Both the position numbers and the translations under genes were made by a program. The notes beneath the pieces are model-generated. The model did not search any database, was not told the origin of the DNA, and saw only the letters and a program-made list of their open reading frames with translations. 64,000 nt of DNA, taken from assembly GCF_036321535.1 (NCBI RefSeq), contig NC_087436.1, forward strand, positions 7,564,001 to 7,628,000. The letters run 5' to 3'. Source of the DNA: Camelus dromedarius. Taxonomy: Eukaryota. Below are positions 1 to 58,939 of this stretch, piece by piece; the first letter of the stretch is position 1; each line of letters opens with the position of its first letter.

Positions 1-630
1 TGTTATATTGGATTAAATGGTACAGCCCAAATATATACTGCTTGAATGAATCTCACTTTAACTGAAAACAGTGATATTTTAAAAGAAAAAATGATAGAAA
101 AATATTTACCATGTAAAAATGAATCAAAAGGAAGTTATAACAATTATATTATTATCAGATAAAATCTATTCCAGAACAATAATGTCAGGGATAGAATAAG
201 ACATATAATAATAATAAAGGGATCAACTTATCAACAGGATATAATGGTACTAAGTGTATATATTCACAATGATAGAGTTATAAAATACATGAAGTAAATA
301 TAAATAGGACTGAAAGTAGAAGTAGATAGCTTAGCATTTATTCTTGGAGATTTCAACATTCCTTTCTCTGTAATTGGAGAAACAAGTAGAAAGAAAACCA
401 GTGAGTATACAGAGACTTGTAAAACACTATCAATCAACTTGACCTCATTTCCATTTATGGAACAATTCACACAACAGCAGAAGACACATCCTTTTGAAAT
501 GCTCATAGGCTATTCACCAAAATAAACAATACTCCAGACCATAAAACAAGTTCAGTAAATTTCAAAGGTTTGAAATTATACAAAGTCTGCTTCCTTATCT
601 AAATGGAATTAGATAGAAGTCAATATAAAT
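1..630 (+). mobile_element. Old L1 (L1M) fragment, ORF2 endonuclease domain, degenerate
   Basis: ~344-370 reads LGDFNIPFS (L1 EN GDFNTPLS motif); downstream remnants 'aacactatcaatcaacttgacctc' (NTINQLDL) and 'aatggaattagatagaagtcaat' (like NGIKLEIN); many stops and frameshifts. Confidence 0.9.
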
Positions 631-649
631 AGATAATACACCAGGATAG

Positions 650-960
650 GAAGCACAGACTTGATTTGGTAGACCAGAGAGTTATTTATTGAAGGGTTTC
701 AAGCATGGAAGTATCACATTTGGTAGATTTCTCAGGTAGTAATTAGAGTAAAGGTCATAAGAGAGGCGAAGCTGGAGGGACTATGATATGAGAGGTACTG
801 CAGCTTGGGTGAAAGGTGACGAGGCCCTGCATAGAAACAGACTTGGGAAATACGTACCAGAAAAACACATGCAAGGCATGTTGACTAATTACAAAAAGGA
901 TGAAAAACAAGCACAAGATGGCTCCATGTCTCCTGCTTGAATGATGGGGTGCTAATAACT
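650..960 (-). mobile_element. L2 LINE fragment
   Basis: Purine-rich L2 antisense-like text (gaggtactgcagcttgggtgaaaggtgacgaggccctg). Confidence 0.55.
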
Positions 961-1121
961 GATAATGCAGATGAAAGAGGGAAAGTATTCTATTCCTCAC
1001 AACAGTCCTATCAGAGGGCACTAGTGCATCTCTCTTAATGGATGAAATCTGGAACTTGGGTCAAATGACTGTCCCAGACCAGACTGCCAGTACATAGTGG
1101 GACCTCAGTAAATGAGGTCTA

Positions 1122-1162
1122 GATGATGATGATGATGATGATGACGACGACTATTATTATTA
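1122..1162. repeat. (GAT)n/(GAC)n/(TAT)n microsatellite, probably a MIR tail
   Basis: gatgatgatgatgatgatgatgacgacgactattattat. Confidence 0.85.
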
Positions 1163-1724
1163 ACTTGTTGCGTCTTGGGAGAGAAGGAGTATTACATGAA
1201 AAGCCTGTCGGGACCTTATGACATCACTGTCACATCAGGGAACTAGGAAACTCCCAAGAGACTCCTGGGGGTGCTTGGCTTAGATACCCCACCATGGGTG
1301 ATGCCATCCCTGACTTCTCCCAGGTGCCCCTCTCATTGCTCACTCCTTCCCCTAAAACTTTCTTGAGCGGTAGCTAGGTGCTAAGTCCGGAAACTGAGGA
1401 TAAGACAGTCAGCACTATTGTCAGGGATAGGCATGATTCTTTTCCCCAAAGAAGATGATTAAATGAAACCAAAAGTTAAAACATATTGGGAAATGCCCTG
1501 CAACGAGGGAGGTAAAGACAACTATCCCCTTTTGGCAGGGTTACTGTGGAGTTAAAGGAGAAGTGGGATGTATGTATTTGGGGATGAAAATTTCCCATCT
1601 AATGGCTTCTAGTTCCTCTGTAGAGTGGGAACCTAGGACACCTCCTGAGGTGGTGAATGCAGAAGTTTTAGGAAGTGAAGGTTTGAAATAATATTGAGGA
1701 TGGGAAAGACAGTAGACCAGGTAA

Positions 1725-1840
1725 ATGACATAAACTACAAGAGGCAGGGAGCTTTTATCAGTTCTGTTCACTGATGTAGTCTACATGCTTAGAACAGTGC
1801 CGAGAAATACTAGACACTTTATATATACGGAATGAATGGT
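1725..1840 (+). mobile_element. L2 3' end
   Basis: gaggcagggagc...tgttcactgatgtagtc...ttagaacagtgcc...gaatgaat is the typical L2 3' terminus. Confidence 0.75.
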
Positions 1841-2340
1841 TCAATTTCCAGCAGTCTTTGAGCTATTCTTTCTAGATCAAGAGAGTATGGTCTTAACAAT
1901 GTCCTTGTGTGAAAGTGTGTGTGTGCATGCGTGCGTGCACGCGTGTGTGATTTTATCCAGCAGATACCAGCCACCTCCTATAAGACAAGCCTAAAAAGGC
2001 AGAGAGTTAGTATTTTACCAAAGAGGGACAATGAAAGAGAATGGCCATTGGGATGGTGGCAGTGGACAATGGCTTATATCATGTACCATGAGGAGTTAAA
2101 GATAAGAGGTAACATGACTAGGGCATATACAGAAGGAGCAATGTATTAGAGGTCCTTGCAAGGCTGGAAGATTGGCATGCTGAGGACAGAAGTTGGAAAG
2201 GCATAAGTTTGAGGTCAGAGGGTAGGATGTCGGAGGGTATTATTTCAGAAGGTACAGCTGTCCCTGGTCGGGAGCTCCAGGTCGAGGCCATAGTCATATT
2301 GGAACGGAGGCAAAGGGCTTTGAGATGAGGAAGCCTAATG

Positions 2341-2650
2341 CAGTGCTTTCCAACAGAAATACACAGAAATGTCTAAGCCACATGATTAAGCCACGTGTGC
2401 CATTTTTGATTTTTAAGTAGCCACACTTCAAAAAATCAGAAACCAACAGTTGAAATCATTTTAATAATGTATTTAATAGACTACAATCAAATATTTATTT
2501 CTAAATGCACTAATATAAAATATTAATGAGACATTTTATGTTATTTGTTTCAAACTAAGTCTTTGAAATCTGATGTATATTTTACATTTATAACCCATCT
2601 CAATCAGACTAGCCACAAATGAAGCACTCAGTAACCACGGCCCTAGTGGA
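2341..2650. mobile_element. MER33 (hAT-Charlie MITE)
   Basis: Starts cagtgctttccaacagaaat; internal 'tagccacac', 'actaagtctttgaaatctgatgtatattttaca' and 'catctcaatcagactagccac' match remembered MER33 consensus. Confidence 0.85.
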
Positions 2651-4099
2651 AAAACTCTGGTGATGGGACTCCGAGATCTTAGAAGCCAGGGCCCCTGAGG
2701 TGAGGGACTTGAACTTTAATTTACCAGCAAACTGCTCTATGGGGCATGGTTGACCTGAATTCTGTGTCATCCAACACTGTTAGCTGTGAGAGGCACTCCT
2801 TGGTCACTGAAGTTCCCAGAATACTAAGGTGCTTTGTAGCTTTGGAGAGTTTCTTACCACAGTGGCTCTCCTGATGGTAGTTTAGGAGATAAGACCTTTT
2901 GCTATTGACAATTCCCCTGAATCTCTGGCCTTTGAGGGAATTTCTGAATTCATATCTATAATTATTTTCCTAAAGTGAAAACTATTTTTACAGTAATGCC
3001 TCCTTTCTTTGCTGAAACATCTCTGCCCTATGTTCTCTGGCTGTGGGTGATGCTATTTTGTGGCTAGAATCTCTTGGGACACTTCCACTGTCAACCCTTT
3101 GCTCATTTCCTGATACTGTTCAATGTTTAGTCAGTGTTAGGCTATCTGTCTTAGCTCACTGTAAAGTCTTACTCACCTAGATTTTTCCCTATGATGCTGA
3201 ATGTGTAGACTAAAAACTCTACCGTCCTCGCCACTGTGGGAACTCATGACAAATATCAGAGGTGGACCTTCTCAGTATCCTCTGGCCTTCCATACCTACA
3301 AGAGAGGGGGCAGGCAGAGGATTAACCAGTGTAGAGCTTGATGTTTTCATGGTTTTCTTGTTTCTCTAGTTGCCTCATGGTTTTCAGTAAAAGCTGGGCA
3401 ACCTCAACTACAGCATTAGCTTCTAAAACATGGGTAGCTTAGGAGAAAAAGGCCAACTGGAGTGGAAGCCACAGTTGTGTTCCTCTCATTTTGAAGACTT
3501 TTATGGATAAGGAGCTTAAAGACCAGTCCCTAACTTGGTCCCACCCAAACTGAATAATATTAATTTTTAGCACAAGTTGGTGGTCTGGATCAAGGAAGAA
3601 TATTCAGGTGGTATCCCTAAAGCAACAGGGGTGCCCCATTTCTGACACTCCAAAACACAGCATTATTGAGGAGGAGGTAGTGCATTGTTGGGCGCAAGCT
3701 ATGTATCTAATCCTGCAGATTTGCCTTAACTTTGTGTCCATTTGTAACCTTAATGCATTTTTAGTTGCTCTTGGTGGGTTTTCCCTTGAGCGCCCCAAAA
3801 TGTCATTTCCTAAGTCACTGTCTTAGTGGTGTTCTGCTCAGCAGCAAGCAGCACTAAAGATTTAGGGAAAACCTTACACGTAGTAGCCTGACCTCAGTTG
3901 TTTTGGAAGTGATCCTTCTTTTCTTTCTCTTTCCAAATCTGAAAGTCCACTCTCTTTGTGACTTTATCTCTAGGAGCAACTAGACATCACAGGGGACCAA
4001 GGGGAGGCCTGGCCTCCATGAGCAGACCCCCTGCCCCCTGCCAGAGACTGATCTCTGACTGACAGAGAGTATGGAGCTCTTGTTAGAAATCACAGTATG

Positions 4100-5120
4100 A
4101 AAAAAATGGGGGAGGAACAAGTCCTCTGGCAGACAGACACCTACCATCAGGAAAAGATTGACAGATGCAGGCTTGAGGAGTTGACATGAGACTGTTGAGA
4201 CAAAAAGGCCGATAAATAGGGGTTACTTGGACATAAACTCTTTGGGACAGTTTTTAGTAAGGTTGGAATCAAGTAAGACATAGGGTTAAACATTGGAGCT
4301 GGTGGTGGTGAAGTAGCGAGATGGTGGGGGATGCCTGCATGAGTCAGTGAGATTCATGAGGTCCATCAAGTTTATTGAGACGCTGATACCCTGCGACTAG
4401 GTGGGGTCAGGGGAGTGGGTGGGATTCAGAGCCAAAGTGAGGTCTGGATGGAGAAGAGGATCTAATATCTGCGTGTTCTCTGGGGAAGAAGGGAAAAAGG
4501 CCAGTATAGGGCATGAAAGATGGTTCATCAGAGATGTGAGATACGGAGGTCAAAATGGCTCTGGTGACAAGAAGAAGACCAGTGTTGAGGGCGAAAAGTT
4601 GGACATTTCGAGGAAGGTATGTTACAGTGCCACAGAGCTCGCTGGTAGCAAAATGAGAAAGCTGGTGGTAGGGGTAAAAGAAAAATATATGAAATATTGA
4701 CAGAACTCAATAAAAAGGAGGGCTCTGAAGGCAGAGGAGAGCGGTGAATGAGGCTCTCAGTAAAGAGGGGAAGTCAGTGAAATCGTGGGCACTATGACAG
4801 AGTGGCCTCTGGTGGTAGAGAAGGAAATCAGTCATGATGGATAAAGAACGAAAAAGCATGAGACTCATTGTAAAGACAGAGGACGGCAAGGAAAGGGGAG
4901 ACGTGTGGGATGGAGGCTCAGGTGGGGCCTCCTTGTGTATTCACAGGCCTAGCCAGAGAGGCCGCTCACAGGCTCTCTTCAGCATCCAGGGAGAGGCTGA
5001 GAGCAAGAAGCGGACAGGGCTTCAACGGAGGGGCTGGTAACTGGTTTTCTAGAGTGTCTGCTGAGAAGATGTTTGCCAGAGTCTGAGATGAATCAGAGTT
5101 CCTGTGGAAGCCACAGGGAA
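4100..5120 (-). mobile_element. L2 internal (ORF2) fragment, degenerate
   Basis: Long purine-rich + strand with L2 antisense-like phrases (aagtcagtgaaatc...tatgacagagtggcctctggtggtagagaaggaaatcagtcatg); contains a G4 motif at 4403-4423. Confidence 0.55.
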
Positions 5121-5149
5121 CACAGAGGGAGGAGCAGCTTCCACAGGAT

Positions 5150-5650
5150 TCGCAAATAGTAGGCGGTCAGCCTCCGAGGACTGCACTGCACGTCTCATGA
5201 AGGGGTTTGCCGCAACAGCTGTAAAAAGTTGCCCTAATCAGGAAGCTGGTCCACATGGCTGTAGAGGACCTGAATAAGCAGGCAGGGTCCTCTGTGAGGA
5301 ATAATCAAGAACTTTTGTTTCACCCCAGCCACGGAGATGAGATCCACTGCCCTGCGGAGGACCCGGGCTTTCTGCAGAAAGTAGGGGGAGGGCACTGCTC
5401 AGGCCCCGCCCCTGGCATGGCCCCACCCCTTAGAGCATGGGGCGGGGCCTCCAGCCCAGGTCCCTCCCTGGGCTTCCCGTTTCCACAGCTAGTTTTGGAA
5501 CCTCACCGGTTGCTCAGCCACAGATGCTGGAACTAGAGCCAAAAGAATAGAACACAGTCTGTGTTCTAGGAGAAGATAGATAATTAAGGGGAAAGTTACA
5601 ACACAGTGTGAAAACTGCGCTGGGAGGCGTGAGGGCACAGATCCCAGTTG
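5150..5650. promoter_or_regulatory. Promoter/enhancer-like GC-rich segment: two inverted Sp1 GC boxes around a CACCC box, plus RFX-like half sites
   Basis: ccccgcccc 5404-5412, ccccacccc 5421-5429, ggggcgggg 5439-5447; gttgctcagccac 5509-5521; more CpGs than the flanks. Confidence 0.5.
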
Positions 5651-6139
5651 GGAGAGTAAAGCGAGAGGGAGAAAGTCGGGGAGAGAAACAGGGAAGGGAA
5701 ATGAAGAGAGAGATTGTTCCCCTTCTGAGGCTTTTCATCATCGTGGGGGCTCCTTTCCCTAATTAGGGGGATATACACTGTTGAAAACAAAACCCTAAGA
5801 AGGAGACTTTGATATTATGTCTCATGGTTGCCTTTAGGATGCTCAGTGCCCAGGCCTACATGGTCCCTTCAAAGGCAAATGACCCCACGGCCTCTATGCC
5901 ACACGTGGGCCATGCCTCCACTGCTGCAGGGGCTGGGAGTTTGATGCTTGATGTAGTTCTCGGGAAACACATCGTACTAAAATTTCTATTGGCCTCGTCT
6001 GTCTTTTTTTTTTTTTTTTTTTTTTTGTAGTAAAACAATAAGTCTCAGCCAAAAGTCCTACTGATGTACTATAATGTATATCTCCATGTAGTTTGATTCA
6101 TGTGTAATGTAGACAAATGTGCCTTGTGATCACGTTGGC

Positions 6140-6340
6140 TTTTTCTTTTAAGTCAGATTTATTAAGGTATACTTTGCTTTCAATAAAATCCTCTGTCTTT
6201 AGGTGCACAGTTGTAAGATTGTTGGATTTTGACAAATGTATATAGCACCTTTGTAAATAGCACCTTTGTCAAGATATACAATATTTTCATTACTCCTAAA
6301 TTTACCTGTGTGCCTCCTCTTAGTTAACTTTATTCCCTCA
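6140..6340 (-). mobile_element. L1M (L1MB/ME-type) 3' UTR end
   Basis: tttattaaggtatacttt...ggtgcacagtt...ttttgacaaatgtatata...aagatatacaatattttcattactcc. Confidence 0.75.
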
Positions 6341-7109
6341 TCTGTTTGGTGTTCACAGTGCATAGAACCTTCTCATTTACTGTCCCACAACAATTTAGCA
6401 AGGTTTTTTTCTTTTTTATGTAGACAAGAAAATTAGAAACAGAACTCCTAGGCAGAAGCTTCATTCTTTTGACTCTGTTGTCCATGCTTTTTTGACATTA
6501 TATCATTTATATTTTTGGACTCATGAAGTTAATAGTGACTATTAGTAATCATGAATTTTAAACCAAGCATACTTTGATCTGTAACCACATGTGAATTTCA
6601 CCAGATTCAGAAAAATAGAATGTATACTTTGAAAAAAAAATCCCATGTGCTTAATGAATTAATTCAATAAATAAGTTCTCCATGCAAAATGGAATGTGTA
6701 TTAATAATGTACCTATATCTTATATCTATTTATGTATTTATATCTATCTCTGAATCTAGGTCAATTTTGGGTGTCTAATCTGTATCTTTGTTGAAATTTA
6801 CATTTTTCTGTTTTCTTTGTGTATATGTTTTCTTCAGTAATTCTACTGGATGATTTATATCTTCCCCAGTGTACCACTCCTCTCCCACAGATAATCTTGA
6901 TTCTCTGAACAACCAAAATACAAGATATTAAGAAAAATGTGTTTGATTCTGCTTTAGTTTATCTATAAAGGCAGATCCCAATAGGGCTCAAGGGTAAAGC
7001 TATGGGAAGCATATTTCTTACTTTTCTACCATCTAAGACATTGCAAGTTATTTAATAGAGTAATACTTATAGTTATTAAGATAAATCATCTTCTTATTTT
7101 TCGTTTATT

Positions 7110-8530
7110 CATTTTTTCAGGGATTAACAAGTTTTATGATTTGTCAATGAAACTTTGAACTGTTCTTAAAAGAGATTTGAAGGTATGAAATGTCTAGAAG
7201 AAGTGAAATAAACGTTTCCTTGGTTTTAGCACCAGCTGTCTTTGAGTATGTTTAGAAGTTTCAGGAGTATTTGATTCTTATAGAATAATCCTGTATATTT
7301 TAAAAGACAATGTTTCTTTGAAAATCGTTACATTTCATCATAGGAGCTAATTTTGAGTCCATGGTGAACAGTAACGATCTCCCTGACCCTAGTCTTTTTC
7401 TTGGTTTGTTGCTTTTCCTTTATTCATCTTAATGGCGTTGGCATTGCTCTAAAATGAGTACCACAAATAACAAAGAATTTTTAAACTAAACATTTATCAT
7501 GGATGCATATAATATTCTTGTTTAGAATCACAAGTAATAAATGTATAAATCTAAAGAATTAAATTCATAAAAAAACTCTAGTTATTTCCCTTCCAATTTA
7601 GACAGGGAGCAACCAAGAGAACAAAGGAAAATTTTACATAAAAGTTAATGAGACACAAATAATCCATCTCTCTTGCTGCACAGACAAAATTTGCCATGGG
7701 ATATTGAACAGAGCATTGTGTAGGGAAATGGGAAGCCAATTTTTTCTCTTCAGTATAGAATCTTTCAAAATTTTAAACAAGATTTTTATCCATCATTCTC
7801 ATTATACAGAACTGAAGGTTGAAGTCAAACAGCACAATTTGTGACAGTCTGACTGCTTTCAATGGGAATATTTAGCAGGTCTGAAACTAATTCAATGAGA
7901 ATTACTCAGAAATATTTTAATTAGCTTTAGGGTTTAAATTACTTAGAAAGTAAGAAATAATTACTTGACACAAGTCAGTCTTATCATTCCTATTTTATAG
8001 ATTATAAATGAAACAAGGAAAAGTTTAAAAAACATAGCCAGAGTAGAGACTCAACTGTAAAAGTCATTAATGTCTGTGTTTTACGTATTTAAATAAGATG
8101 AAGATGATTACAAGGTTGAAAATATGCATTATATATACTATATGCACACATGTATATTTAATAACTATTCTTTGTTATTTATGTATTCATTTTAGAGCAA
8201 CTCCAATGCCATTATGATGAATAAAAGAAAAAAAAAACAAAGCAAAGCAAAGTCAAGGGTTGAGAAGATCATTACTGTTCACCATGGACTCAGAATTAAC
8301 TCCTACACTAAAATATACATAATGGTTTCCAAGGGAAGCATAGACTTTTAAAATATCCAGGATTATACAATAAGAATCAAGCATTTCTGAAACTTCTAAA
8401 CGTACTCAAGGACACCAAGAAAATGTTTATTTCATTTCTTTTATACATTTTATACCTTACTGTCTCTTTCAAGAACAGGTCAGTATTTCACTTACGAATT
8501 ATAAAGCTTATTAATGCCTAAAAATTAATT
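7110..8530. repeat. Long diverged inverted repeat: arms ~7110-7500 and ~8140-8530, spacer ~640 bp
   Basis: 7341-7390 vs reverse complement of 8256-8305 = 43/50 ungapped; 7237-7316 vs rc 8335-8414 = 68/80 ungapped; perfect 21-mer 7354-7374 / 8272-8292. Confidence 0.95.
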
Positions 8531-9474
8531 TATATGTATATACATTATTGAATTGCTATACCAAATTTAAATAATTATCATGGCTTTAATGAGTCATAGT
8601 CCATATATCTACTGCTTCCAAATAATCTGGATGATAAAATTAATATTCAGAAGCATAACTAATGGAACTTTACAACATTGAACTCATTTTTCCTAAACTT
8701 TCTATTATTTTAACTTTCACAATAAACTGATTTATTTATAGGCAGAGTCTTAAATGCAGTTTTTGGTTGTTTTTGCAGAATCTTTCCTGATTATTCTGAG
8801 AAGTACAACAGAAATGGAGCCATACATGAGAACATAGCTTTTGACTAACTGGGGATTTTTACCCAATAAACCACCATATGTTTCTTGACTTGCTTAGGTG
8901 ACAGTTTCCTCACTTATGAGATTATGGACACACCAAAGATACAGTTTGAGTCATATACACATCCTGAATACGAATACATAAAGAAATGTGTGCTAGAGAG
9001 ATGACAAAAAGTTTATGACACATAAAGAAACAGATGGGCGAAGGGGCTCACAAGGTAATTGGGGTAGGGCTCCAGCCATCCCTTTCAACAATTTCAGCTG
9101 AGCACCTGCTGGGGGCTGGCACCACCCTGGACATGGTATCATTTCACCGGAGGAGCTGTTAGACAAATCGTTGGAAATTCTAACTGTATGGGACATGGAG
9201 GCATCTTGCTTTGTTTACACACAAAATCAAGACACTGGTAAGGAGCTGCACCTAAGCCAGGATGAGGAGGGTACAGACAGTCTAAACGACATGGACTGAA
9301 CACTTGATCTGTAATCTTTCTCCTTGTCCTTGGGAACCAGTCAACTGTATCTTGGTGTCCCTTACTCTCAACTTTACCAAGGACTATAACAACCAAGAGA
9401 AATAGAAAAAGGAAGAAGAGGAAAGGATCTTAGCAGAGAACTTAGAAGGGTAGAGGTAAAATAATTTTTTTATC

Positions 9475-9590
9475 CTCTACAACCTCTCTTAATTAACTAA
9501 ATCAACAAAGACCCTGTTTTGAAAAAAGGTCACATTCACAGGTTGCAGGTGGGTGTGAATTTTGGAGGACACCATTCAACCCAGAACAGA
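9475..9590 (-). mobile_element. MLT1 (MaLR) LTR fragment
   Basis: caaagaccctgttt...aaggtcacattcacagg...gaattttggaggacaccattcaacccagaaca. Confidence 0.8.
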
Positions 9591-9599
9591 GACTCAGAA

Positions 9600-9730
9600 A
9601 CTGTGAGGTCAGCCTCAGTTTTCCTCATCTGTACCTCAACAGCGAGGATGTGAGGATGAAGTGAGCAGATCCAAAAAGAGGACTTCGCGCCAGCTCTAGT
9701 GGTCAATGCACGTTAGTTACTAACGTTGCT
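9600..9730 (+). mobile_element. MIR SINE fragment
   Basis: MIR core gcctcagttttcctcatctgta. Confidence 0.7.
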
Positions 9731-11629
9731 AAGAAGTCCTCCTCCTCATCCTCATGGACACCAGCATCTCCATCTTAATCATCCACCAGAGTTACAGGGG
9801 CCGTGAGAGACACCAGGAAGGACAGCACGTAGCCTCCACTGTCAAGGAGATTATGGTTTAGCTGTGGATGCAACCCTGACAGACCTTAAATTCCAAAGAG
9901 CTGAGCTCCATGTCACCAGGCAGAACCGTGGAGGAGCAGGCGGCCAGTGTGGGAGTGGTTTGAGTAGTCAGGACAGAAGATGTCCCACCAGGGTGAGCTT
10001 TGAAAGTATTCTCAGAAGCAATGTGGGCCCCCACGAAGCTGTGACCCTCTGCCTCAACAGGAACTCCTTCTCATTCCCTCACCGTGAGACCTGATCAGAG
10101 GCAGAGTCACAGGCCCTTGACATCCACGTGACTCATTACCGATGGAGTCTGAACTCCTGATTCTGAGAGGCTCTCACTTCTCACTGGGAAAAGTACATCT
10201 CTGACCAAAATAACATTGCCTGCCATTTGCTGAAAAGCCTTGGAGATTTAGAGTTCATGGGTGCTCCCAGGGGAGGCAGAATCATCTGACCTCCTTTACT
10301 TACCTTAAAGGTTCAGACAAAGAACAGCAGTGACATAGCTGGGGGCTCATCCCTTCTAAATCTACAACACCAGTACAATCCTAGCTGGGATGTGAAAACC
10401 ATAAAGGATGTGATTTGAATGTTTCTGGAAAACTTGAGATGTTGATGAAGTTCTTAGTAATACCAAAGACCAAGAATCAAGTTATTGTTAAAACCGTTCT
10501 TTGGAGCACTTGGTGGTTCTTGAATTGACAGCGTAAAATTGTCTTTGCTAGAGAGAGAACTTGGAAAGCCAGACAGACTGTCAGCCCAAGGTGGTACACT
10601 TCTGGAGGGTTCTGCTGAGGCAATTGGCTACCTTTCTTCTGCAGATGGCCTTGCCTTTCATGTTAGTATTATAAATAAGTTGAATCTTGTTCATCAATGA
10701 GTAAGGGCTAAGAGGCAAAATTGTTCCTTTAGTAATAGATTCCCTGGGCAAAATAATGTGCTTGGCTTTTTTAAAATATGAAATGAAAGGTAAATTTATT
10801 TATGTTGATGTGTTCCCCTTTGAAGAGTACTCCAATGCACTTAGTTGGTGTAAAACACTGTATGGTCAGTGGTTGCCTAGTGATGGATTATATCCTTAAA
10901 ATTTAGAAGTGAGTTGGCTGCTGGGACTTCATAACACTGGGTTCTGGGTTGATAGACCAACCTATCAAAGCAAAAAAAAAAAGAGAGAGCGAGAGAGAAG
11001 AGAAAGAAACAAAAATGCAGAATTTTTTCCTTAATAAAGAATATGACTACAGTTAAGCTATTTTGCATATTTTTGCATATTTTACCCTGTTTAGGCAAAC
11101 TAAGAAAACAGTTTCAAAGTCTTTGTCCCTAGGTACTAACAGACATTTCCTGCCATCTTTTATTGCAGGATTATCAAAAGAATCCACTGTAGTTTATACT
11201 AGTTTGGCTTTTCAGACACAAAATGTATTCTGGTTGTTTGGAACAGAGTGGGCTGTGTGATTTTTTTAACCTGAAAAGTCACCCATGAAATTATATATAC
11301 CCACAGAAAATAAAATCAAGCAAAGCAACATTTGACAAATTAAGTGCATAGGTGCTAGATATAAAGATATAATAGAGGTAGAAATATATATATATAGATA
11401 TCTATCTAGTTATATTAGTAATAGTTACCACCATCATAACATGATATGATACCTGAAAAATCCTGCTTTAATATAGTGATTTGAATTAAGTAAGTAGCTA
11501 ATTCTTTCACATTCTGTAGCACATCCTGATTTAGGAAATTAAATACAGTCGCCACATTTTGTTATTGTTTTTATTACATCATCACCTGACTTTTAGGTAC
11601 CAATTACTGCATCACTCAGGATAGGGTAA

Positions 11630-12015
11630 TATATTAGTTTGCTAGAAACTGCCCTTGAAAACTACCACAGACTTAGTGGCTTAAACAGCAGTTATTCCTT
11701 TTCTCATCATTCTGGAGGCTAGAAGTCCAAGATCAAGGTGCTGGTAGATTCAGTGTCTGGTGAGGACTCTCTTCCTGGTTTGCAGATGGCCGCCTTCTTG
11801 CTGTGTCCTCACGTGAACTTCCCTTTGTGAGCATGTATCCCTGGCGTCGTCTTGGGAACCCAGTTTTCTCTTCTTATAAGGATATCACCCTTAGGGCTCG
11901 TTTTAACTTACTCACCTCTTTAAAAGCTTAATATCCAAATATAGTCACATTCTGAGATACTGGGGGTTAGGGCTTCAACATTTAAATTGTGGGAAACAGA
12001 ATTCAGCCCCTAACA
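11630..12015 (-). mobile_element. MLT1B/C-type MaLR solo LTR
   Basis: tattagtttgctag...ttctggaggctagaagtccaagatcaaggtg...gtcacattctgagatactgggggttagggcttcaaca...ttcagcccctaaca. Confidence 0.9.
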
Positions 12016-12067
12016 ACTAGGTTATGTTGAGGTAATAGACAACACCCGAGTCTTAGTGACTTAACGT

Positions 12068-12266
12068 ACATCAGCAATGTTTTTCTGGGAAGGGCCAGAT
12101 GACAAATACTTTACTTTTTGTGGGCCAAGTAGTTACCACAACTACTCAACTCAGGCGTTTTAGTGTGAAAGCAGCCATAGACAGTATGTAATCCAAGGAG
12201 TGTGACTGTTGACAGAAACACATGATGAGCTAGATTGGACCCATGGGCTGTAGTTGCCAACCCTCA
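12068..12266 (-). mobile_element. MER58A (hAT-Charlie MITE)
   Basis: aagggccagatgacaaatacttt...caactactcaactc...gtgtgaaagcagccatagaca...tagttgccaaccct. Confidence 0.85.
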
Positions 12267-15026: not shown

Positions 15027-15230
15027 CTGTGCTGTTTAGTAAGGTAGCCTTTAGACAAGGCTATTTGTATTTAAATTAAATACAAATAACTAACATTAAT
15101 CATTCAGTTCCTCAGTCATACCAGCCATATTTCAACTGCTCGAAAGTCACACATGACTAGTGAGTCCCATATTGAGTGGTGCCTTAGAATGTTTCCATCA
15201 ACAGGGAACTTTCCGTTGGACTGCTCTGTG
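15027..15230 (-). mobile_element. MER3 (hAT-Charlie MITE), abutting MER58A
   Basis: ttcagttcctcagtcataccagccatatttcaactgctc...tagaatgtttccatca...ttggactgctctg. Confidence 0.85.
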
Positions 15231-16979: not shown

Positions 16980-17240
16980 AGTATCTTTCTATATTTACAA
17001 GAAAAAGGCAAACATTGGAATTAAAAAGGGCAAAGGATGTGAATAAGCATGTCAGAAAGAGAAATTTCAGATGGTTAATCCAAAAATAAAATACAGAGGC
17101 TTAAACCACTAATCCTCAAGGAAGTGGGGAGAACAGAAGACCGCCATCTTTGTTGCTGTTGTTCATCCGATGTTTGATAACATTGGGTGCTGGCAGGTGT
17201 GTGGTAAACTCAACACCCTCACACAGATACTGCCCAACAA
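16980..17240 (+). mobile_element. Old L1M ORF2 3' fragment
   Basis: aaaaagggcaaaggatgtgaataagcat...cactaatcctcaaggaa...tgataacattgggtgctggcaggtgtgtgg resembles the L1 ORF2 C-terminal region. Confidence 0.65.
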
Positions 17241-18768
17241 ACTTGCACTTACTTCACATTGGGAAGGGGATACATCAAAAGTCATCTTTATCTTTAGAAT
17301 TTCCTTGCTGCGTTTTTCTCCTTCCAAGCATCCAGTCTGGGAATCACAGCTATGTGAGTGGTAGAGTGTTCCCAATCAACTTTTGAGCTACATGATACTT
17401 TCCAGGAAACTCGTTGCTTGTCTTTTGGAATCTACACAAGATCTAATCTCTCCCACCTGCTTGTGCAGCATCTTAGATCTCTAGGCAATCCTTTCTTCTT
17501 TCAAAAGAAAGTACTTGGGTAATATTTATTTAAATTCAAAAAGTGCTTATGTTTGAAACTACCTAAATATTAAATAGCTAGAAGTCAGAACCACAGGATT
17601 ATTTGCTTAATTACTTAAGTTATTATAATGTTTATAAATGTTATTAAAATGAAGCTGAATAAACAATGACTCCTAAACAGTGATTAATTTAAAGTCTATT
17701 AATCATGATTTCAGTGAGACACCGTCCTTAATTAAGATCAGCTAGGTAATGCTTCACTGTCTGTTACTGTCACAACCACAGAAAGGCTACAGTGAACGTT
17801 TGTAATTTACTTAGAATTTTAACATTGCTGTCAGTATAGGATGTGTAATTTTTTGGGTATTAATTCATGGAAACAATTCAGTTATGGGGATTTTACTACC
17901 AGGATGTGTAATTAGTAGTACAAATACCGCATTTTCTTTCACCCTTTCCTTTTTTAGCAGAAAATAAGCTTCAGAGATTATTTAAAAAACTGACCAATTA
18001 GTAGAGCTTTGGTTCTTCATATACAACACTTCAGATAATTGCCCACTCAATCTCCGAAATCTTCCCCTTTTCAATTTTCTTTAAATTATTTTGATTAAAT
18101 TGAGAAGAAAACCTCAATGGATATAGTCACGGTTCGTAGCCGATTGCTAACAGCAGCTTGCTAAATTGCTCAGTAACTGGGTGCAGCTAAAATCCCAAAC
18201 TCATGAATCCAAATTTCTTGAATCAGAATCCCTCTAAAGGGTCATGTAAAATTTAGATCAAACATTAGAAAGTGTGCAAATACAATAAGCTCCCCTTATT
18301 TACATTGTTTGATCTGAAGTAGTTACTGTAGGGGGCATCAAAGGAAAAGAGAAAACTTATACATAGCAGGCATTGAAATATTTGTTGATTTGAAATCTAA
18401 GTTGGCTTCTTAATTTTGCTTAGTGGTAATGGCAACTTAAAGCAAAACTATTTTTAAGGAGAATTTTCAAACAATGTATCATCAACTGCCTACACCTTAT
18501 TAAATAGACTTGACTTAGAGTGATTCCACTGGCACACTATTGAGTTAAAACGTATATGTCAATTCTCACAGTACTGAGCATCATCTTTGGTAAACAAACA
18601 AGGCAGAAGACAATTCAAGACCTGTACCAAGCTCAGAGCAGTATGGACAGTGTTTCTTGGGGAAACACAGGGAGAAAAAGCAGTAAGTGTTGCATGGTTA
18701 CTCCATCTGTAATAGCTTGAGCCACTGCAGAGATCTAAATGGGTCATACGTTAAGAATTCAGAAAAGA

Positions 18769-18864
18769 GGGATCAGGACAGAGTTCAGTAGTAGAGTAAA
18801 TACTTAGCATGTGCAAGGTTCTGGGTTCAATCCCCAGCACCTCCATAGCAAACAAACAAACAAA
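18769..18864 (+). mobile_element. Camelid tRNA-derived SINE (Vic-SINE type)
   Basis: Pol III B box ggttcaatccc, A-rich tail; 16-bp TSD aagaattcagaaaaga (18753-18768) / aagaattcaaaaaaga (18865-18880) after a TT|AAGA L1-EN site. Confidence 0.9.
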
Positions 18865-19690: not shown

Positions 19691-20874
19691 ATCAGGCTTA
19701 TAGGGTATTTATAGGTTGAGAAAGTCTGATAATTCAAATTATTTTTTGTTGAGTGAGAAAGAGATGTTAAAATCTTAGAGTGAATTTTTAAACAGTGCAG
19801 TGTAATTCAGCCACTTTCTAAAAAAACCATACCCTAATCATACTAATGGTAAGCCTTGAAGACTAATTTATCATGTACACAAGAAGCAAATGGGCAAGAA
19901 GCAAAGTGTCTTGATTGAAAGGAATTCAAACACATTAAATTACCCAGGCCATGGGCAGCCTTATTGCACTCATGACTGATGAGATAATTCTCAGTGTAAA
20001 GTAATGTCTTCTTCCACAGAGATTCTTAGGGAATTCTCATACAAACACTGCCTTAATAAGCCTGTCCTTTATTCAAAGCAGAAAAGAGTTAAATGAGTAG
20101 TTATATTTATCTCTAGGATTCCCATTCTACTTTTGTCTCTCCATCCAAGCATCCAGCCTAGTAACATGAGCTATATGAGTGAAAAGAGATCTCCAGTCAA
20201 CTTTCTGGTTACTTGGTTCTCTTAAGGAAACTCAATGCTTATCTGGGGGGACCCTGAGACAATCCCATTTAAATTCCAGTGACTGGTTCTTCTATCATCT
20301 TAGGCAGTTTAGGAAGGATGAGAACCCCAGTAACTGCAAAGGAAGCCTTTCCCAATGTTTCTAAGGGTGTCTGGGGTCTCACAAAGGAGTCAGGCAGGTC
20401 CCTGCAGGATATTGTTTTGTCTGCTGGGCTTCCCATCCCTTCCACGAGCCACTTAGCTTGCACTGGGGTTCTTCATATGTGCCTTTGAGCAACACCAGTG
20501 ACACCCTAGAGGAGCTCCCACAATGTCATCCTGGTGCCATTTTCTACACCAAAGTGGGGGAAATGTTCAGTAACCTCCAGCCTAGAGACAGTTTATCATA
20601 TAGAGACAAAATATGAACATTTTTTGAAAGGGGAAGGGGCCCTTTCCCTTTCAAAAACAGGGACCAATAAAGCAAGACTATGACTACCAGGGTAATTTGA
20701 AATAGAAGTCATAATGCTGCTAGAATCGTGGCCTCCCTACTGACCTTGAGTGTATTGAACAGAGTAGTGCGAGAAACAGAATACCTTACCCATCAAGATA
20801 AGTTTCAGTCATTTCAATTCAAAAAGGTTTCTTTGATTTTCAAGTAGTACTTTTAAGGTGTACATTTTTTTTTA

Positions 20875-26853: not shown

Positions 26854-26966
26854 AGGGGGAGGGTAGAGCTTGTGGTTGGCATGCACGAGGTCCTGGGTTC
26901 AATCCCCAGTACCTCCATTAAAAAAATAAAGAAGTAAAAAATAAATAACTCTTCTCAGAAAAAATA
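26854..26966 (+). mobile_element. Camelid tRNA-derived SINE with an internal A-box deletion
   Basis: gcatgcacgaggtcctgggttcaatccccagtacctccattaaaaaaa; TSD aagaatacactaagt (26839-26853) / aagaatacattaagt (26967-26981). Confidence 0.92.
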
Positions 26967-31980: not shown

Positions 31981-32154
31981 TTTAATAAATAACTTTTAAA
32001 ATATTTTATTTATTATTGTATTATTTAACTATTTTATTTTGGCAGAAGAGGGGGTAATTAAGTTTATTTATTTTTAGAAGAGGTGCTGGGAATTGAACCC
32101 AAGACCTTGTGCACGCTAGGCATGCACTCTACCAGTTGAGCTATACCCTCCCTC
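31981..32154 (-). mobile_element. Camelid tRNA-derived SINE, long-tail variant
   Basis: Reverse complement reads agggagggtatagctcaactggtagagtgcatgcctagcgtgcacaaggtcttgggttcaattcccagcacct; degenerate TSD tggaacaggagtaattt / tggaataagagtgattt. Confidence 0.92.
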
Positions 32155-35138: not shown

Positions 35139-35687
35139 TGCTAGGTAGGTAGGGAAGCGGGGGCACCAGGTTGATAAAGAGGAGAGGAAGGATGGTCCAG
35201 ATGATGGCAGTGTGCCTGCCTCCAGCATAAAGGGGCTTTACTTCCTTTAAATGAGCGCCAGCAAGAAACCGGTTAGAACCTGACAGCACGACTACGCAGT
35301 AACCACAAGGACTTGACCGGACAGCAGGACCCAGTGCTCACTGTAATATAATTAACATTTCAGTTTAGCCCCAAAACCCCATGGGGTTTTCTGTGTGCAT
35401 CATGGGTAAGGATATACTCAAAGGAAACAAACATGAGTATGCACGCCACGGGCAAGAGCCGTCCACCAATCAAGAGACCCCCTCTAAGCGAGGGTGTAAG
35501 AGGAGGGGGCAGAGACCACTGCTATCCGCCCTCGGATCAGCCCGCCTCCCTATCTTGGAGGGGTACTTTCCTTTTGCTAAACAAATCCTTTAAAATCTTT
35601 CAGTAAACAACACACTCCGTCTCCCTTCTGAATTCTTGTCTTTTGGATAAGACAGGACTAGGGTCTTTTCCTTGTTGGTGGGTAACA
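35139..35687 (+). mobile_element. ERV1-class solo LTR (TG...CA, 549 bp), family not named
   Basis: Perfect 4-bp TSD TCCC (35135-35138 / 35688-35691); CCAAT at 35466-35470; homologous to 49384-49938. Confidence 0.9.
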
Positions 35688-37821: not shown

Positions 37822-37945
37822 CTCTCTACTTCTTCTTCTCTTCTTTTTTTTTTTCTTTTTAATGGAGAGACTAGGGATTGAACCCACGATCTCATGCATG
37901 CTAAGCATGTGCTCTACCAGTAAACTACACTCACACTCTCTCCCC
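37822..37945 (-). mobile_element. Camelid tRNA-derived SINE
   Basis: Poly(T) then aatggagagactagggattgaacccacgatctcatgcatgctaagcatgtgctctacc; possible TSD gctttctct. Confidence 0.88.
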
Positions 37946-46626: not shown

Positions 46627-48056
46627 TAAAATTTTTTCATTGCAGTATACTTGATTTACAATGTTGTGTTAGTTTCTGGTGTACAACATAGTGATTCAGT
46701 TTTTTATATATATATATATTCAGTTATATACATATATATGTATATATTCTTTTTCATTATAGGTTATTATAAGATATTGAATATAGTTCCCTGTGCTCTA
46801 CAGTAAGACCTTGCTTCCGTATTTTATATACAGTAGTGTGTTTCTGTTAATCCCAAACTCCTGATTTATCCCTCTCCCTGTCTTTCCTCTTTGGTAACCA
46901 TAAGTTTGTTTTCTATGTCTGTGAGTCTGTTTCTGTTTTGTAAACAAGTTCATGTGTATCATTTTTTTTTTAGATTCCACATATAAGTGATATATGATAT
47001 TTGTCTTTGTCTAATTTACTTCATTTAGTATGATAATCTTTAGGTCCATCCATGTTGCTGCAAACAGCATTATTTTATTTTTCACCCCTGAGTAGTATTC
47101 CATTGTATAAATATACCACAACTTCTTTATCTAGTCATCTGTTGATGTGCATTTAGGTTGTTTCTGTGTCTTGGCTATTGTAAATAGTGCTGCTATGAAC
47201 ATTGAGGTGCATGTATCTTTTCGAATTACAGTTCCTTCCAGATATATGCCCAGGAGTGGGATTGCTGCTGGATCATATTGTAATAGAAAAGAACAAATCT
47301 GACTCCATATTAGATCTGTTCCTTTAGCTTTAACCCTATACCCTGTTTACCAGACTTAATCTTGCTACCTCTGCACTGTTCATAAAAGAATGTTGCCTTT
47401 AGCCTGAAATATACAGGACAGCCTATTCTCAAGGCTCTGACTTTTAAGGATATTAATACTTTTGCACGTATATAAAGATAAACAGATTGCAGAATAAAAA
47501 ATAACATTTGTTTTGTTGGAGGTTTTAACGGGGCACCGTGACCTGACCCACGTGGACAGCTGAAGGAACAAAGAATTTCTACACCAAGGAGTTTGCAACA
47601 ACCAACTTCACCCCCTCCCCTTTTTTTTAGTATAAAAGTAGCCTGAATTCTCACTTGGGGAAGATGGTTCTCCAAGACATTATTTGGCCATCTTCTCAGT
47701 CTGCCAGCTTTCTGAATAAAGTCGCTATTCCTTGCCCCAACACTTCGTCTCCTGATTTATTGGCCTGTCGTGCAGTAAGCAGAACGAGTTTGGACTTGGT
47801 AACAATATCTTAAGTTTATTTTTAGTTTTTTAAGCAATCTCCATACTGTTTTCCATAACAGTTGCACCAAATCTCATTCCCACCAACAGTCTAGGAGGGT
47901 TCCCTTTTCTCCACACCCACTCTAACATTTAAAATTTGTGGCCATTTTAATGATGACCATTCTCATTGATGTGAGGTGATACCTCACTGTAGTTTGATTT
48001 GCATTTCTCTAATAATTTGTGATGTTGAGCATCTTTTCAAGTGCATATTGGCCACC
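46627..48056 (-). mobile_element. Cetartiodactyl/camelid L1 3' part, split by an LTR at 47279-47804
   Basis: 3' UTR as in 13223-13820; ORF2 3' text gctggatcatat|...|cttaagtttatttttagttttttaagcaatctccatactgttttccata is continuous across the LTR. Confidence 0.95.
47279..47804 (+). mobile_element. ERV1 solo LTR, MER41-like (cetartiodactyl type)
   Basis: TG...CA termini, perfect TSD ATAT (47275-47278 / 47805-47808), TATAAAA 47631-47637, AATAAA 47715-47720; the family name rests on the 5' 'aacaaatctgactccatatt' and is less certain. Confidence 0.88.
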
Positions 48057-49383: not shown

Positions 49384-49938
49384 TGTTACCCCAAAGGGGG
49401 AAGGGAAAAGACGCCAATTCTTGTTTTACTCGAAAGAGAAGATTTCAGACAGGAGACGGAAGCGTTGTGTAGCGAAAGATTTTAAAGGTTTTATTAAGCA
49501 AAGGAAAAGTACACCTTCAAGAATGGGGGGGGGGGTGATCCAAGGGTGGATAGCAGTGGTCTTTGCCCCCTCCTCTTACACCCTCACTTAGAGGGGGGTC
49601 TCTTGATTGGTTGACAGCTCTTGCCCTGGGAATGCTCAGTCATGTTTGTCCCCTTTGTGCATGTTCTTACCCATGATGCACACAGAAAACCCATGATGGG
49701 GGCTAAACCACAATGTTAATTATATTACAATGAGCCTTGGGTCATGTCCGGTTAGGTCCTTGTCGCTACTGTGAAGTTACGGCTCTCCGGTTCTAACTGG
49801 TTTCTTGCTGGCACTTGTTTAGAGGAAGCGAGTTGGGCCCCCCTTAATGCTGGAGTTGGGCACAATGCCATCTTCCAGACCATCCTCTCTCTCCTCCACC
49901 TGTCTGCCTGGTGCCCCCACTTACCTAACTACCTAACA
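49384..49938 (-). mobile_element. ERV1-class solo LTR (555 bp), same family as 35139-35687, opposite orientation
   Basis: TG...CA termini, TSD aacc/aatc; AATAAA on the minus strand at 49490-49495; collinear homology to the first copy. Confidence 0.9.
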
Positions 49939-54740: not shown

Positions 54741-57104
54741 GCAAATGCATTTTATATGTGTTACAAGTACAAAATTATAGTATCACAAACTAATAAAGTA
54801 TAGAAAACTTGAAGGGAAAATATCTATAACTTAATATATGTATATTTTTGTGTATTTTAAGCCCATTCACTCATTCTTGAACATAGCATATATAAAGACA
54901 GTGGAGTAAATAGGGCCATTCTCACATATTTCAAAAATATATGGGTTTTTTTAAGAAATAAAATTATATAACACTGTATGATTTGTTCATTTTTTTTCCC
55001 CAGAAATAAAAATCACCGTGGATGAGAAAAAGGGAGAAAAGTACCTTTGCAATCATTTCCGAAGTTACAGTCATGCTGACACAATAGTAAGGTGTGAAAT
55101 TGCTAACTATGGTTGTGGAAGTATGTCAAGAACACGCCTTGTACTATACTGGATTACAGTAATAGGGCATCTGATTTCCGAGGAGAAGCTGAGCTGTTTT
55201 ATAGATATCCTCTTCCTGAAAATCACTATCTCATTTTTCACCAAGTCTTGATCCTCTAGTGGATTTGCTCATGTTCCTTTAAAGTAAATTGTTGCTTATT
55301 TCAATCATGCTGAACATTAACCCTGTATTTCTACTTCCTCCATTAGCAAATTGACATTTTGACTTGGTGATCATATTTACCAGCTTATTTGGTTTCTATT
55401 TTGCTAAAATAAAGATGTTTTACTTTATAGGAAAGGTAACTTTGTAGTGTATTGAGTTTCTCAGGGTTGGGTGATAAACACCAGATACCATTATTCCAAC
55501 TGCCATCTTTTCTCTTCGTAGAGACAAACACATTTAAAGCTCATACTGATGCAGAATTCACAGCCAGAGCACTCTTCCTTCTTGTGACCAAGGTATCATT
55601 AAAGGTCCATACAAGTAAGATCAGGGCTTGAGTCAGGCTGAATACTTCTTATGTATATATTCATAGCTTGAGTCCAGCCAGAATATTTAAAAAAAAATTA
55701 TTTTATCAAAAAATACTTTCAGTTACTGCTCGAAGTGTTGTTGCATAGCAACTAATTGTTCGTGGAGCACAACCCAATAATACCCAACCCATGTGACATT
55801 ACATCTATTTTTTTAAAATTTCAATTCTGTCTCCCAAAAAATCAAGGTGGATAATTACAGTGACCCGAACAATTTAAAGATACAGGCTCATTTTTTAAAA
55901 TTGATATTTGATGAACGTTCTATTCAGGAAATGTGTTTTTTTTCTAAGATGTGCATGTCAGCTTAAAACTGTTTTAATCCAGGATGAGACTAAAACAAAT
56001 ATGTTTTTCAGCTAAGATATTTAGGTCAACCAAAGGAATAAAGACTTGATTAAGAGCTCACCAACTGACCAACACTTTGTTAACAAAATTATAAAAAAAA
56101 GTAGTTGCTGATTTTTCTGTTTTTCTCTCCGGATACTTTTGTGTTTTGAGAGATATTTTCTGTCTTATTGTATATTCCAAATTTTAAATCCTGGAGTTTA
56201 TTTAGAATAGTTATAACAATTTCCTTGCTAGAAAAATCTGGATAGTAACATATTTCAAGTATTTTTATTTGTAGAATTATAGTAATAATAATAATGATAG
56301 TAAAAGATAAAGCATCAAGAGGGTTTGATTCCCACCTCCAACATTTATAGACAGCTATGTAATTGTTAACCAAGTTGTTGTCTAACCATTGGTTAGTAAT
56401 TTCATATATGAAGACAACACCTACCAAACAGGTGGAGGTTGTGGGGGTTAAACATGCATCACGTGGAAAAACGCTTCCTACAAATGCCTGACAAACGGCA
56501 TATGATTGGCTCATGTTGTGCATCAATCCTTTTGTTTCATTTCCGATAAACTAAGTTCTTTTATTGACAGAACAATTCTCCTGCAAAACGTCATACTCTG
56601 CAGTTAGAATTTTGGTCAATTAGGTGGTAACCTTGTATTTTGATGTGGTTCTGGAGTCTCAGATTCCTTCTGGAAAACAGTCAACATTTCTTTTTCCTTC
56701 TTATTTTTCCCGATATTGTGAGAAGGAAAAGAACTAGAACTCCAGTCCTTTGCTATAGAGAGAGGAAGGAGAGTGTAGCGTTAGCTCACAGCTAGGTCCT
56801 TCCTCGAAAGCAGAGAGTGATCAATGCGGGTGGTAGATTACGCAAAAGAAACATTCATTCCAGCGTCATGGTTATATAACATAAGGTACGCTACCAAGTT
56901 TCAGGAGGAACAAAAGTGATAAGGCTCATAATCAAAGTCAAAATTCAGCGTTTAAAATGTATTTAAAGAATGGAGAGATGAGATCAATCCAATAAGCTAA
57001 AACTTTAAAAGAATTGAATATAACTTGCTTTATAGGGTTTCTAACGATAAATTGCTTAAGTACCACATGACTTAGAAGCACTATGGATGAAGGTGATTTA
57101 GGAA

Positions 57105-58832: not shown

Positions 58833-58866
58833 AAAAGAGAAAGAAAAGAGAGAAAGAGAGAAAGAG

Positions 58867-58937
<71 letters not shown>

Positions 58938-58939
58938 AA
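58833..58939. repeat. 107-nt pure purine tract ending in (GAAA)18
   Basis: Direct read; uninterrupted GAAA units at 58868-58939. Confidence 0.95.

Follow-up and report, generated by a model that had tools for sequence, protein, structure and literature searches.

Inverted duplicates, two reverse-complementary arms on either side of a spacer, were defined by Chen et al. (2017, PMC5398296) as arms of 10-10,000 nt with a spacer of 0-1,000 nt; by this loose definition, the sections of that paper cited here count 4.3 million human cases, mostly with arms shorter than 36 nt. Inverted Alu and other SINE pairs are described as ADAR substrates by Bazak et al. (2014, PMC4066801) and reviewed in PMC11263572; according to the cited part of the former, Alu editability falls off with distance (decay length ~800 bp) and is only weakly dependent on identity. 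Rearrangement also generates inverted copies. As far as the cited sections of the two studies go, published short-range template switches are smaller events, enriched in apes at poly(dA:dT) tracts (Walker et al. 2021, PMC7954356), and published fold-back duplications are large, leave a single-copy spacer and lie beside terminal deletions, translocations or rings (Hermetz et al. 2014, PMC3907307). We analyzed a 64-kb stretch of dromedary DNA (hereafter the window, to which all coordinates refer) in which a sequence-only reading had pointed to an inverted repeat at 7110-7500 / 8140-8530. Its arms of ~370 nt and spacer of ~665 nt fall within the definition of PMC5398296. With the mammalian cases in the cited sections it shares reverse-complementary arms, a spacer below 1,000 nt and a predicted stable hairpin, and it belongs to their longest class (36-10,000 nt); most of the human cases have arms below 36 nt, whereas this locus combines ~370-nt arms with the lack of an assignable repeat family. 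It resembles inverted Alu/SINE pairs in arm length, and its spacing lies within the ~800-bp decay length given in the cited part of PMC4066801, but its arms are AT-rich (30-32% GC), and both a SINE derivation and transcription would be putative here. With template-switch and fold-back duplications it has in common an inverted copy beside its source, a single-copy spacer and A/T tracts at its ends, but it is intermediate in size between the events in the cited sections of PMC7954356 and PMC3907307, and microhomology at its junctions is no longer readable because the arms are 18% diverged. We consider the chances slightly better than even that the locus arose when ~370 nt of non-coding DNA were duplicated once, locally and in inverted orientation, and that it has been decaying neutrally since. 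As a neutral fossil it would matter little: one dated, mid-sized local inverted duplication between short template switches and large fold-backs.

The inverted repeat itself is real. Self-BLASTN of the window paired 7107-7515 with 8529-8135 on the minus strand (75.5% over 416 columns including gaps, E 1e-75), and the local alignment score of the arms was 310 against a maximum of 34 among 100 shuffles. Global alignment of the left arm (7114-7490, + strand) with the reverse complement of the right arm (8156-8524, - strand) yielded 293 matches, 66 mismatches and 28 gap columns, corresponding to 82% identity (293/359 aligned bases) and a whole-arm divergence of 18% (K2P 0.212), which replaces the ~15% estimated earlier. 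The left arm is non-coding, with 32% GC over 7114-7478; its alignment is good to 7478 and fades by ~7490. Four ungapped blocks, 77-88% complementary, share one axis: 7114-7224 / 8414-8524 (79%), 7237-7316 / 8335-8414 (85% of 80, which recovers a hand-aligned block reported as 68/80), 7329-7416 / 8230-8317 (77%) and 7413-7461 / 8183-8231 (88%). Another hand-aligned block, 43/50 between 7341-7390 and 8256-8305, proved correct by eye count on the global alignment, which also contains the reported perfect 21-mer, the longest perfect inter-arm match (7354-7374, + strand, partner 8272-8292), and the 13-nt segment present in the left arm only (7224-7236, + strand). The outer edge of the repeat is fairly sharp and lies at a T/A tract: the left arm carries at its outer edge a T-tract with a splice-acceptor-like site (7112-7121, + strand), the right arm carries the mirror-image A-tract at its own (8520-8524, + strand), and the arms are co-extensive. 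Weaker similarity had been proposed as far out as ~6900/8790. This was not borne out, as the best local outer alignment was equalled in 38/300 shuffles, anchored extensions of 100, 200, 300 and 400 nt were equalled by 240, 28, 29 and 11 of 300 shuffles, respectively, and the motif pair quoted for the extension aligns over 11 nt alone; a faint older extension beyond the arms may still exist. Nor did the arms extend significantly inward into the spacer (inner local alignment matched by 41% of 500 shuffles; further tests 43/500 and 245/500). The spacer (7491-8155) is single copy and, as the earlier reading had stated, present, but its size is about 665 nt instead of ~640 bp. The MIR-like remnant placed within it found no support from two tests, both weak: a profile built from 7 hand-picked putative MIR copies of the window had no match in 7700-8155, and 0 of 9 pairwise comparisons exceeded shuffles (best 28/300). 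The stretch near 7770-7880 is one that we take to resemble MIR.

A sequencing-run search over 5200-12200 found part of this stretch in 20/24 runs among the matches listed. Seventeen listed runs contained 0.98-0.99 of its words; 15 of these are possibly the source of the assembly, and 2 come from 2 further studies. Word recovery of 0.98-0.99 in the 2 further studies, together with the 18% divergence between arms, makes an assembly artefact unlikely. Word content of the same stretch was 0.35 and 0.32 in two presumed-RNA runs and 0.06 in one RNA run, which gives no evidence of transcription.

The sequence-only reading had set out from the premise that closely spaced long inverted repeats tend to be unstable; this premise is inapplicable at ~665 nt spacing and 82% identity. 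In the eukaryotic tests described in the cited part of PMC7999016, inverted Alus stalled replication forks with a 12-bp spacer and not with one of 52 bp, and wild-type yeast stably maintained 6-kb inverted Ty elements separated by 280 bp. A 665-nt spacer combined with 18% mismatch is well beyond the unstable range. Instability is not expected at this spacing and identity, so the survival of the repeat requires no selection: it would persist because DNA hairpin extrusion is unlikely with hundreds of bases between arms that mismatch at 18%. The instability paradox was accordingly dropped, as spacers of 52 bp and 280 bp abolish stalling or fragility in the tests covered by the cited part of PMC7999016.

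An ordinary copying accident would account for the geometry. A replicating strand would have stalled or broken and switched to the nearby opposite strand; ~370 nt would then have been copied backwards before the strand rejoined (a template switch or templated insertion). We only infer this mechanism, because neither PMC7954356 nor PMC3907307, in the sections cited, covers events of exactly this size. Poly(dA:dT) tracts do occur at both outer ends of the repeat, and such tracts are common in the local DNA. No third copy of an arm was found in the rest of the 64-kb window (the best of the 10 nhmmer matches listed had E 0.27, and self-BLASTN likewise found none). Exact 18-mer scans were made of contig collections that hold little mammalian DNA: metagenome contigs gave 5 loci, of which 5/5 were chance matches with no alignment longer than 21 nt, and viral contigs gave 0 loci, negatives of almost no weight given that content. 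At an assumed neutral rate of 2-2.5e-9 per site per year, a K2P of 0.21 would correspond to an age of roughly 40-55 My, that is, some tens of millions of years. The arms are as diverged as dispersed repeats of the same window, with a K2P of 0.212 compared with 0.203 for an LTR-like pair and 0.18 and 0.20 for two L1-like pairs; as a counter-point, two copies of an unrecognised repeat would yield an identical neutral pattern.

All internal tests of a maintained RNA hairpin came out neutral, with modest power: the selection tests rest on ~43 informative differences, and weak selection would be missed. A duplex selected on one strand should bias inter-arm differences toward G-U pairs on that strand. 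Differences forming G-U pairs numbered 23 on the + strand and 20 on the - strand (p=0.76), showing no strand bias. Predicted duplex energies differed between strands (-357 vs -340 kcal/mol), an asymmetry equalled in 25/60 arm-swap null draws. Homogenised arms or a protected helix of Dicer length should leave the differences clustered, and window variance was not above the null at either 40 nt or 25 nt. At 21 nt, the longest stretch of perfect identity is what chance predicts (null mean 21.3, P=0.49; 10,000 permutations of 70 events in 355 columns). A gene-conversion patch at the 21-mer was considered and rejected, given this run length and the lack of any homogenised patch within the arm pair. 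Between the arms, 42 transitions and 21 transversions (2:1) were counted, and no frame of the 4 gap-free blocks showed a synonymous excess (4/4; 38, 98, 168 and 185 of 300). One observation may lean toward a maintained duplex: with G-U pairs allowed, uninterrupted runs of at least 19 pairs numbered three on the + strand (23, 32 and 27) and one on the - strand (30). Rfam placed no family over the arms; its 2 matches in the window were both tRNA-like and lay elsewhere. The arms have diverged as unselected DNA does, and an ordinary old copying accident is therefore the most likely origin, not a working hairpin-RNA gene. Among the three origins proposed by the sequence-only reading, an old local duplication is thus supported, a retained hairpin RNA is unsupported and a long-TIR transposon has little in its favour.

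The same neutral pattern would follow if the arms were two independent insertions, or one insertion and a local copy, of an unnamed interspersed repeat in opposite orientation, to which we give a minor but real chance. In the right-arm + / left-arm - orientation, both copies terminate in a short A-tract placed ~16 nt past an AATAAA-like hexamer, the arrangement expected of a retroposed sequence truncated at its 5' end; the A-tracts stand at both outer ends with variant poly(A)-signal hexamers just inside, the arm divergence equals that of the dispersed LTR-like and L1-like copies of the window, and annotated TEs make up ~36% of camelid genomes (PMC8605555, cited part). However, direct repeats around either arm were not above chance (468/500 and 188/500 shuffles as long), while by contrast the three solo-LTR-like elements of the window (35139-35687, 49384-49938 and 47279-47804) retain TG...CA ends and 4-bp target duplications (TCCC; AACC/AATC; ATAT). 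These elements serve as a control, with 2 duplications exact and 1 carrying one mismatch, and two of them show the same degree of mutual divergence as the arms. Over the 64 kb the arms moreover have no further copy, compared with ~4 occurrences each of L1-like and SINE-like repeats, and a rare repeat is unlikely to have landed twice at a distance of 665 nt. Long inverted arms around an unrelated middle are typical of MULE/MuDR and foldback-type transposons, and the terminal inverted repeats (TIRs) of hAT-Charlie and TcMar-Tigger elements are short. That the whole 1.4-kb unit is a non-autonomous DNA transposon of the former kind, with ~370-nt TIRs and unrelated DNA in the middle, is the least probable of the readings weighed here. 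The overall layout (long arms, an unrelated middle and fairly sharp outer ends) is in its favour, and the ends accommodate TA or TTA duplications, of the TA or TWA kind that TcMar and PIF/Harbinger elements make; several 2-4-bp matches fit the A/T-rich flanks, however, and such matches are expected in A/T runs and hence uninformative. Where long-TIR elements would be set apart, the locus departs from them: no target duplication of 8, 9 or 10 bp, the length range of hAT and MULE elements, was present among 110 end pairs tried, the longest direct repeat of the outer flanks is 5 nt (488/500 shuffles as long), no transposase remnant was found by Pfam on window peptides or by an ESM Atlas search with the right arm's 69-aa frame, which gave no usable match, and 64 kb hold no second element. 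Camelid DNA transposons are, moreover, mainly hAT-Charlie and TcMar-Tigger (PMC8605555, cited part). An undescribed mammalian DNA transposon family with ~370-nt TIRs is less likely than a maintained transcript duplex; if the arm were such a TIR the locus would matter, and no measurement favours that.

The repeat could also derive from a gene end or be kept for its RNA. A tail-to-tail duplication of a terminal exon or 3' UTR, with the left arm running from a splice acceptor toward AATAAA at 7536 and the right arm being its inverted, decayed copy, seems to us highly improbable. Similarity does start at an acceptor-like site (7121, score 8.7), and poly(A)-signal hexamers lie at or just past the inner ends (AATAAA 7536 and ATTAAA 7558 on the + strand, ATTAAA 8157 on the - strand), yet the right-arm counterpart of the acceptor scores -0.03, and acceptor-like sites scoring at least 7.8 occur 3.6 times per kb in the local DNA, all by crude matrices of approximate frequencies. 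The arms show no codon signal, comparison of 1-7100 with 8541-64000 revealed no paralogy (3 BLAST rows, all E 0.33), and Pfam gave no match at curated cut-offs among the window peptides (sets of 144 and 110), the 5 faint rows lying below them. Coding paralogy was rejected, and a duplicated coding exon is unsupported, there being no synonymous excess and no conserved acceptor in the right arm. It is likewise improbable, if a little less so, that the arms pair in a transcript and that selection keeps the hairpin because ADAR or Dicer acts on it or because it serves splicing or localisation, with a GC-box cluster at ~5400 possibly driving expression. A long duplex is predicted for both strands (about -340 to -360 kcal/mol), and the 1461-nt stretch folds with arm-arm pairing; any inverted repeat would fold, though. 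The distance between arms lies inside the range of inverted-Alu editing (decay length ~800 bp; PMC4066801, cited part), and splice-acceptor-like sites occur on the + strand at 6891, 7121 and 7754. Against selection stand the neutral-like divergence, the absence of any G-U or energy strand bias or homogenised patch, the lack of an Rfam family over the arms and of a CpG island at 5400, and the failure to identify a host gene from window peptides (Pfam) or from an exon-like frame at 55 kb (weak homologue search). In the cited part of PMC5398296, moreover, human intergenic inverted duplicates are expressed in 7.8% of cases, barely above the 7.4% of mirror controls. A specific form of this selected-hairpin reading supposes non-TE arms within one transcript, for instance in the last exon or 3' UTR of an unannotated gene started at the GC-box cluster near 5400, where a ~350-bp imperfect duplex would have been kept for tens of My as a lineage-specific ADAR, Staufen or Dicer substrate. 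We regard it as improbable too. Unique sequence would then do what inverted SINE pairs do elsewhere, and a maintained non-TE duplex would matter because inverted SINEs are the source usually invoked for long dsRNA in mammals; nothing measured favours it.

On present evidence, the locus does nothing. Were it transcribed, its arms would pair and receive light ADAR editing as a by-product, much as inverted SINE pairs do. The fit in the cited part of PMC4066801 would give ~1.5% mean editing at 665 nt if the locus is transcribed, and probably less for an AT-rich duplex. The predicted arm duplex is weaker than that of the window's LTR-like pair (about -1.0 vs -1.4 kcal/mol per nt). A search of the literature on camel A-to-I RNA editing and SINEs returned nothing relevant among the matches listed.

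The window as a whole is AT-rich, repeat-laden mammalian DNA (37.6% GC, CpG o/e 0.23) with tRNA-headed SINE-like copies, L1-like copies and solo-LTR-like elements, and the comparison of its 144 + 110 peptides with Pfam identified no coding exon. The promoter-like element noted at ~5400 consists of three GC-box/CACCC-type motifs (5406, 5421 and 5440; cluster 5406-5445) within the most GC-rich 300 nt of the window. The motifs are thus present, but without a CpG island (CpG o/e 0.27-0.35); the cluster could be an enhancer or a tissue-specific promoter, and nothing ties it to the inverted repeat. Around and inside the repeat, crude scores mark strong acceptor-like sites on the + strand at 6891 (12.1), 7754 (10.6) and 8779 (7.8), and those at 6891 and 8779 each lead into a short frame closed by a stop, in the manner of a last exon. 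Far from the repeat, an exon-like stretch at 55004-55091 (+ strand) combines strong acceptor and donor scores with a 28-codon open frame and has no Pfam match; a weak homologue search with this frame returned 1 candidate, none scored. The four tRNA-headed SINE-like copies (~18770-18850, ~26855-26925, 32078-32150 on the - strand and 37863-37934 on the - strand) are 74-81% identical to one another, those at 32078-32150 and 37863-37934 reach the Rfam tRNA cut-off, and all presumably resemble camelid SINEs. The LTR-like elements at 35139-35687 and 49384-49938 are mutually inverted, 82% identical and 13.7 kb apart, and the one at 47279-47804 lies within an L1-like copy. A diverged direct repeat (17218-17423 / 20036-20244; 69% over 210 columns, E 3e-13, 2.8 kb apart) may be a local duplication of greater age or a pair of old repeat copies. 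Short near-perfect palindromes occur at 20621-20657 (37 nt, 92%) and 15062-15088 (27 nt, 96%), and a long pure GAAA-type simple repeat spans ~58840-58940.
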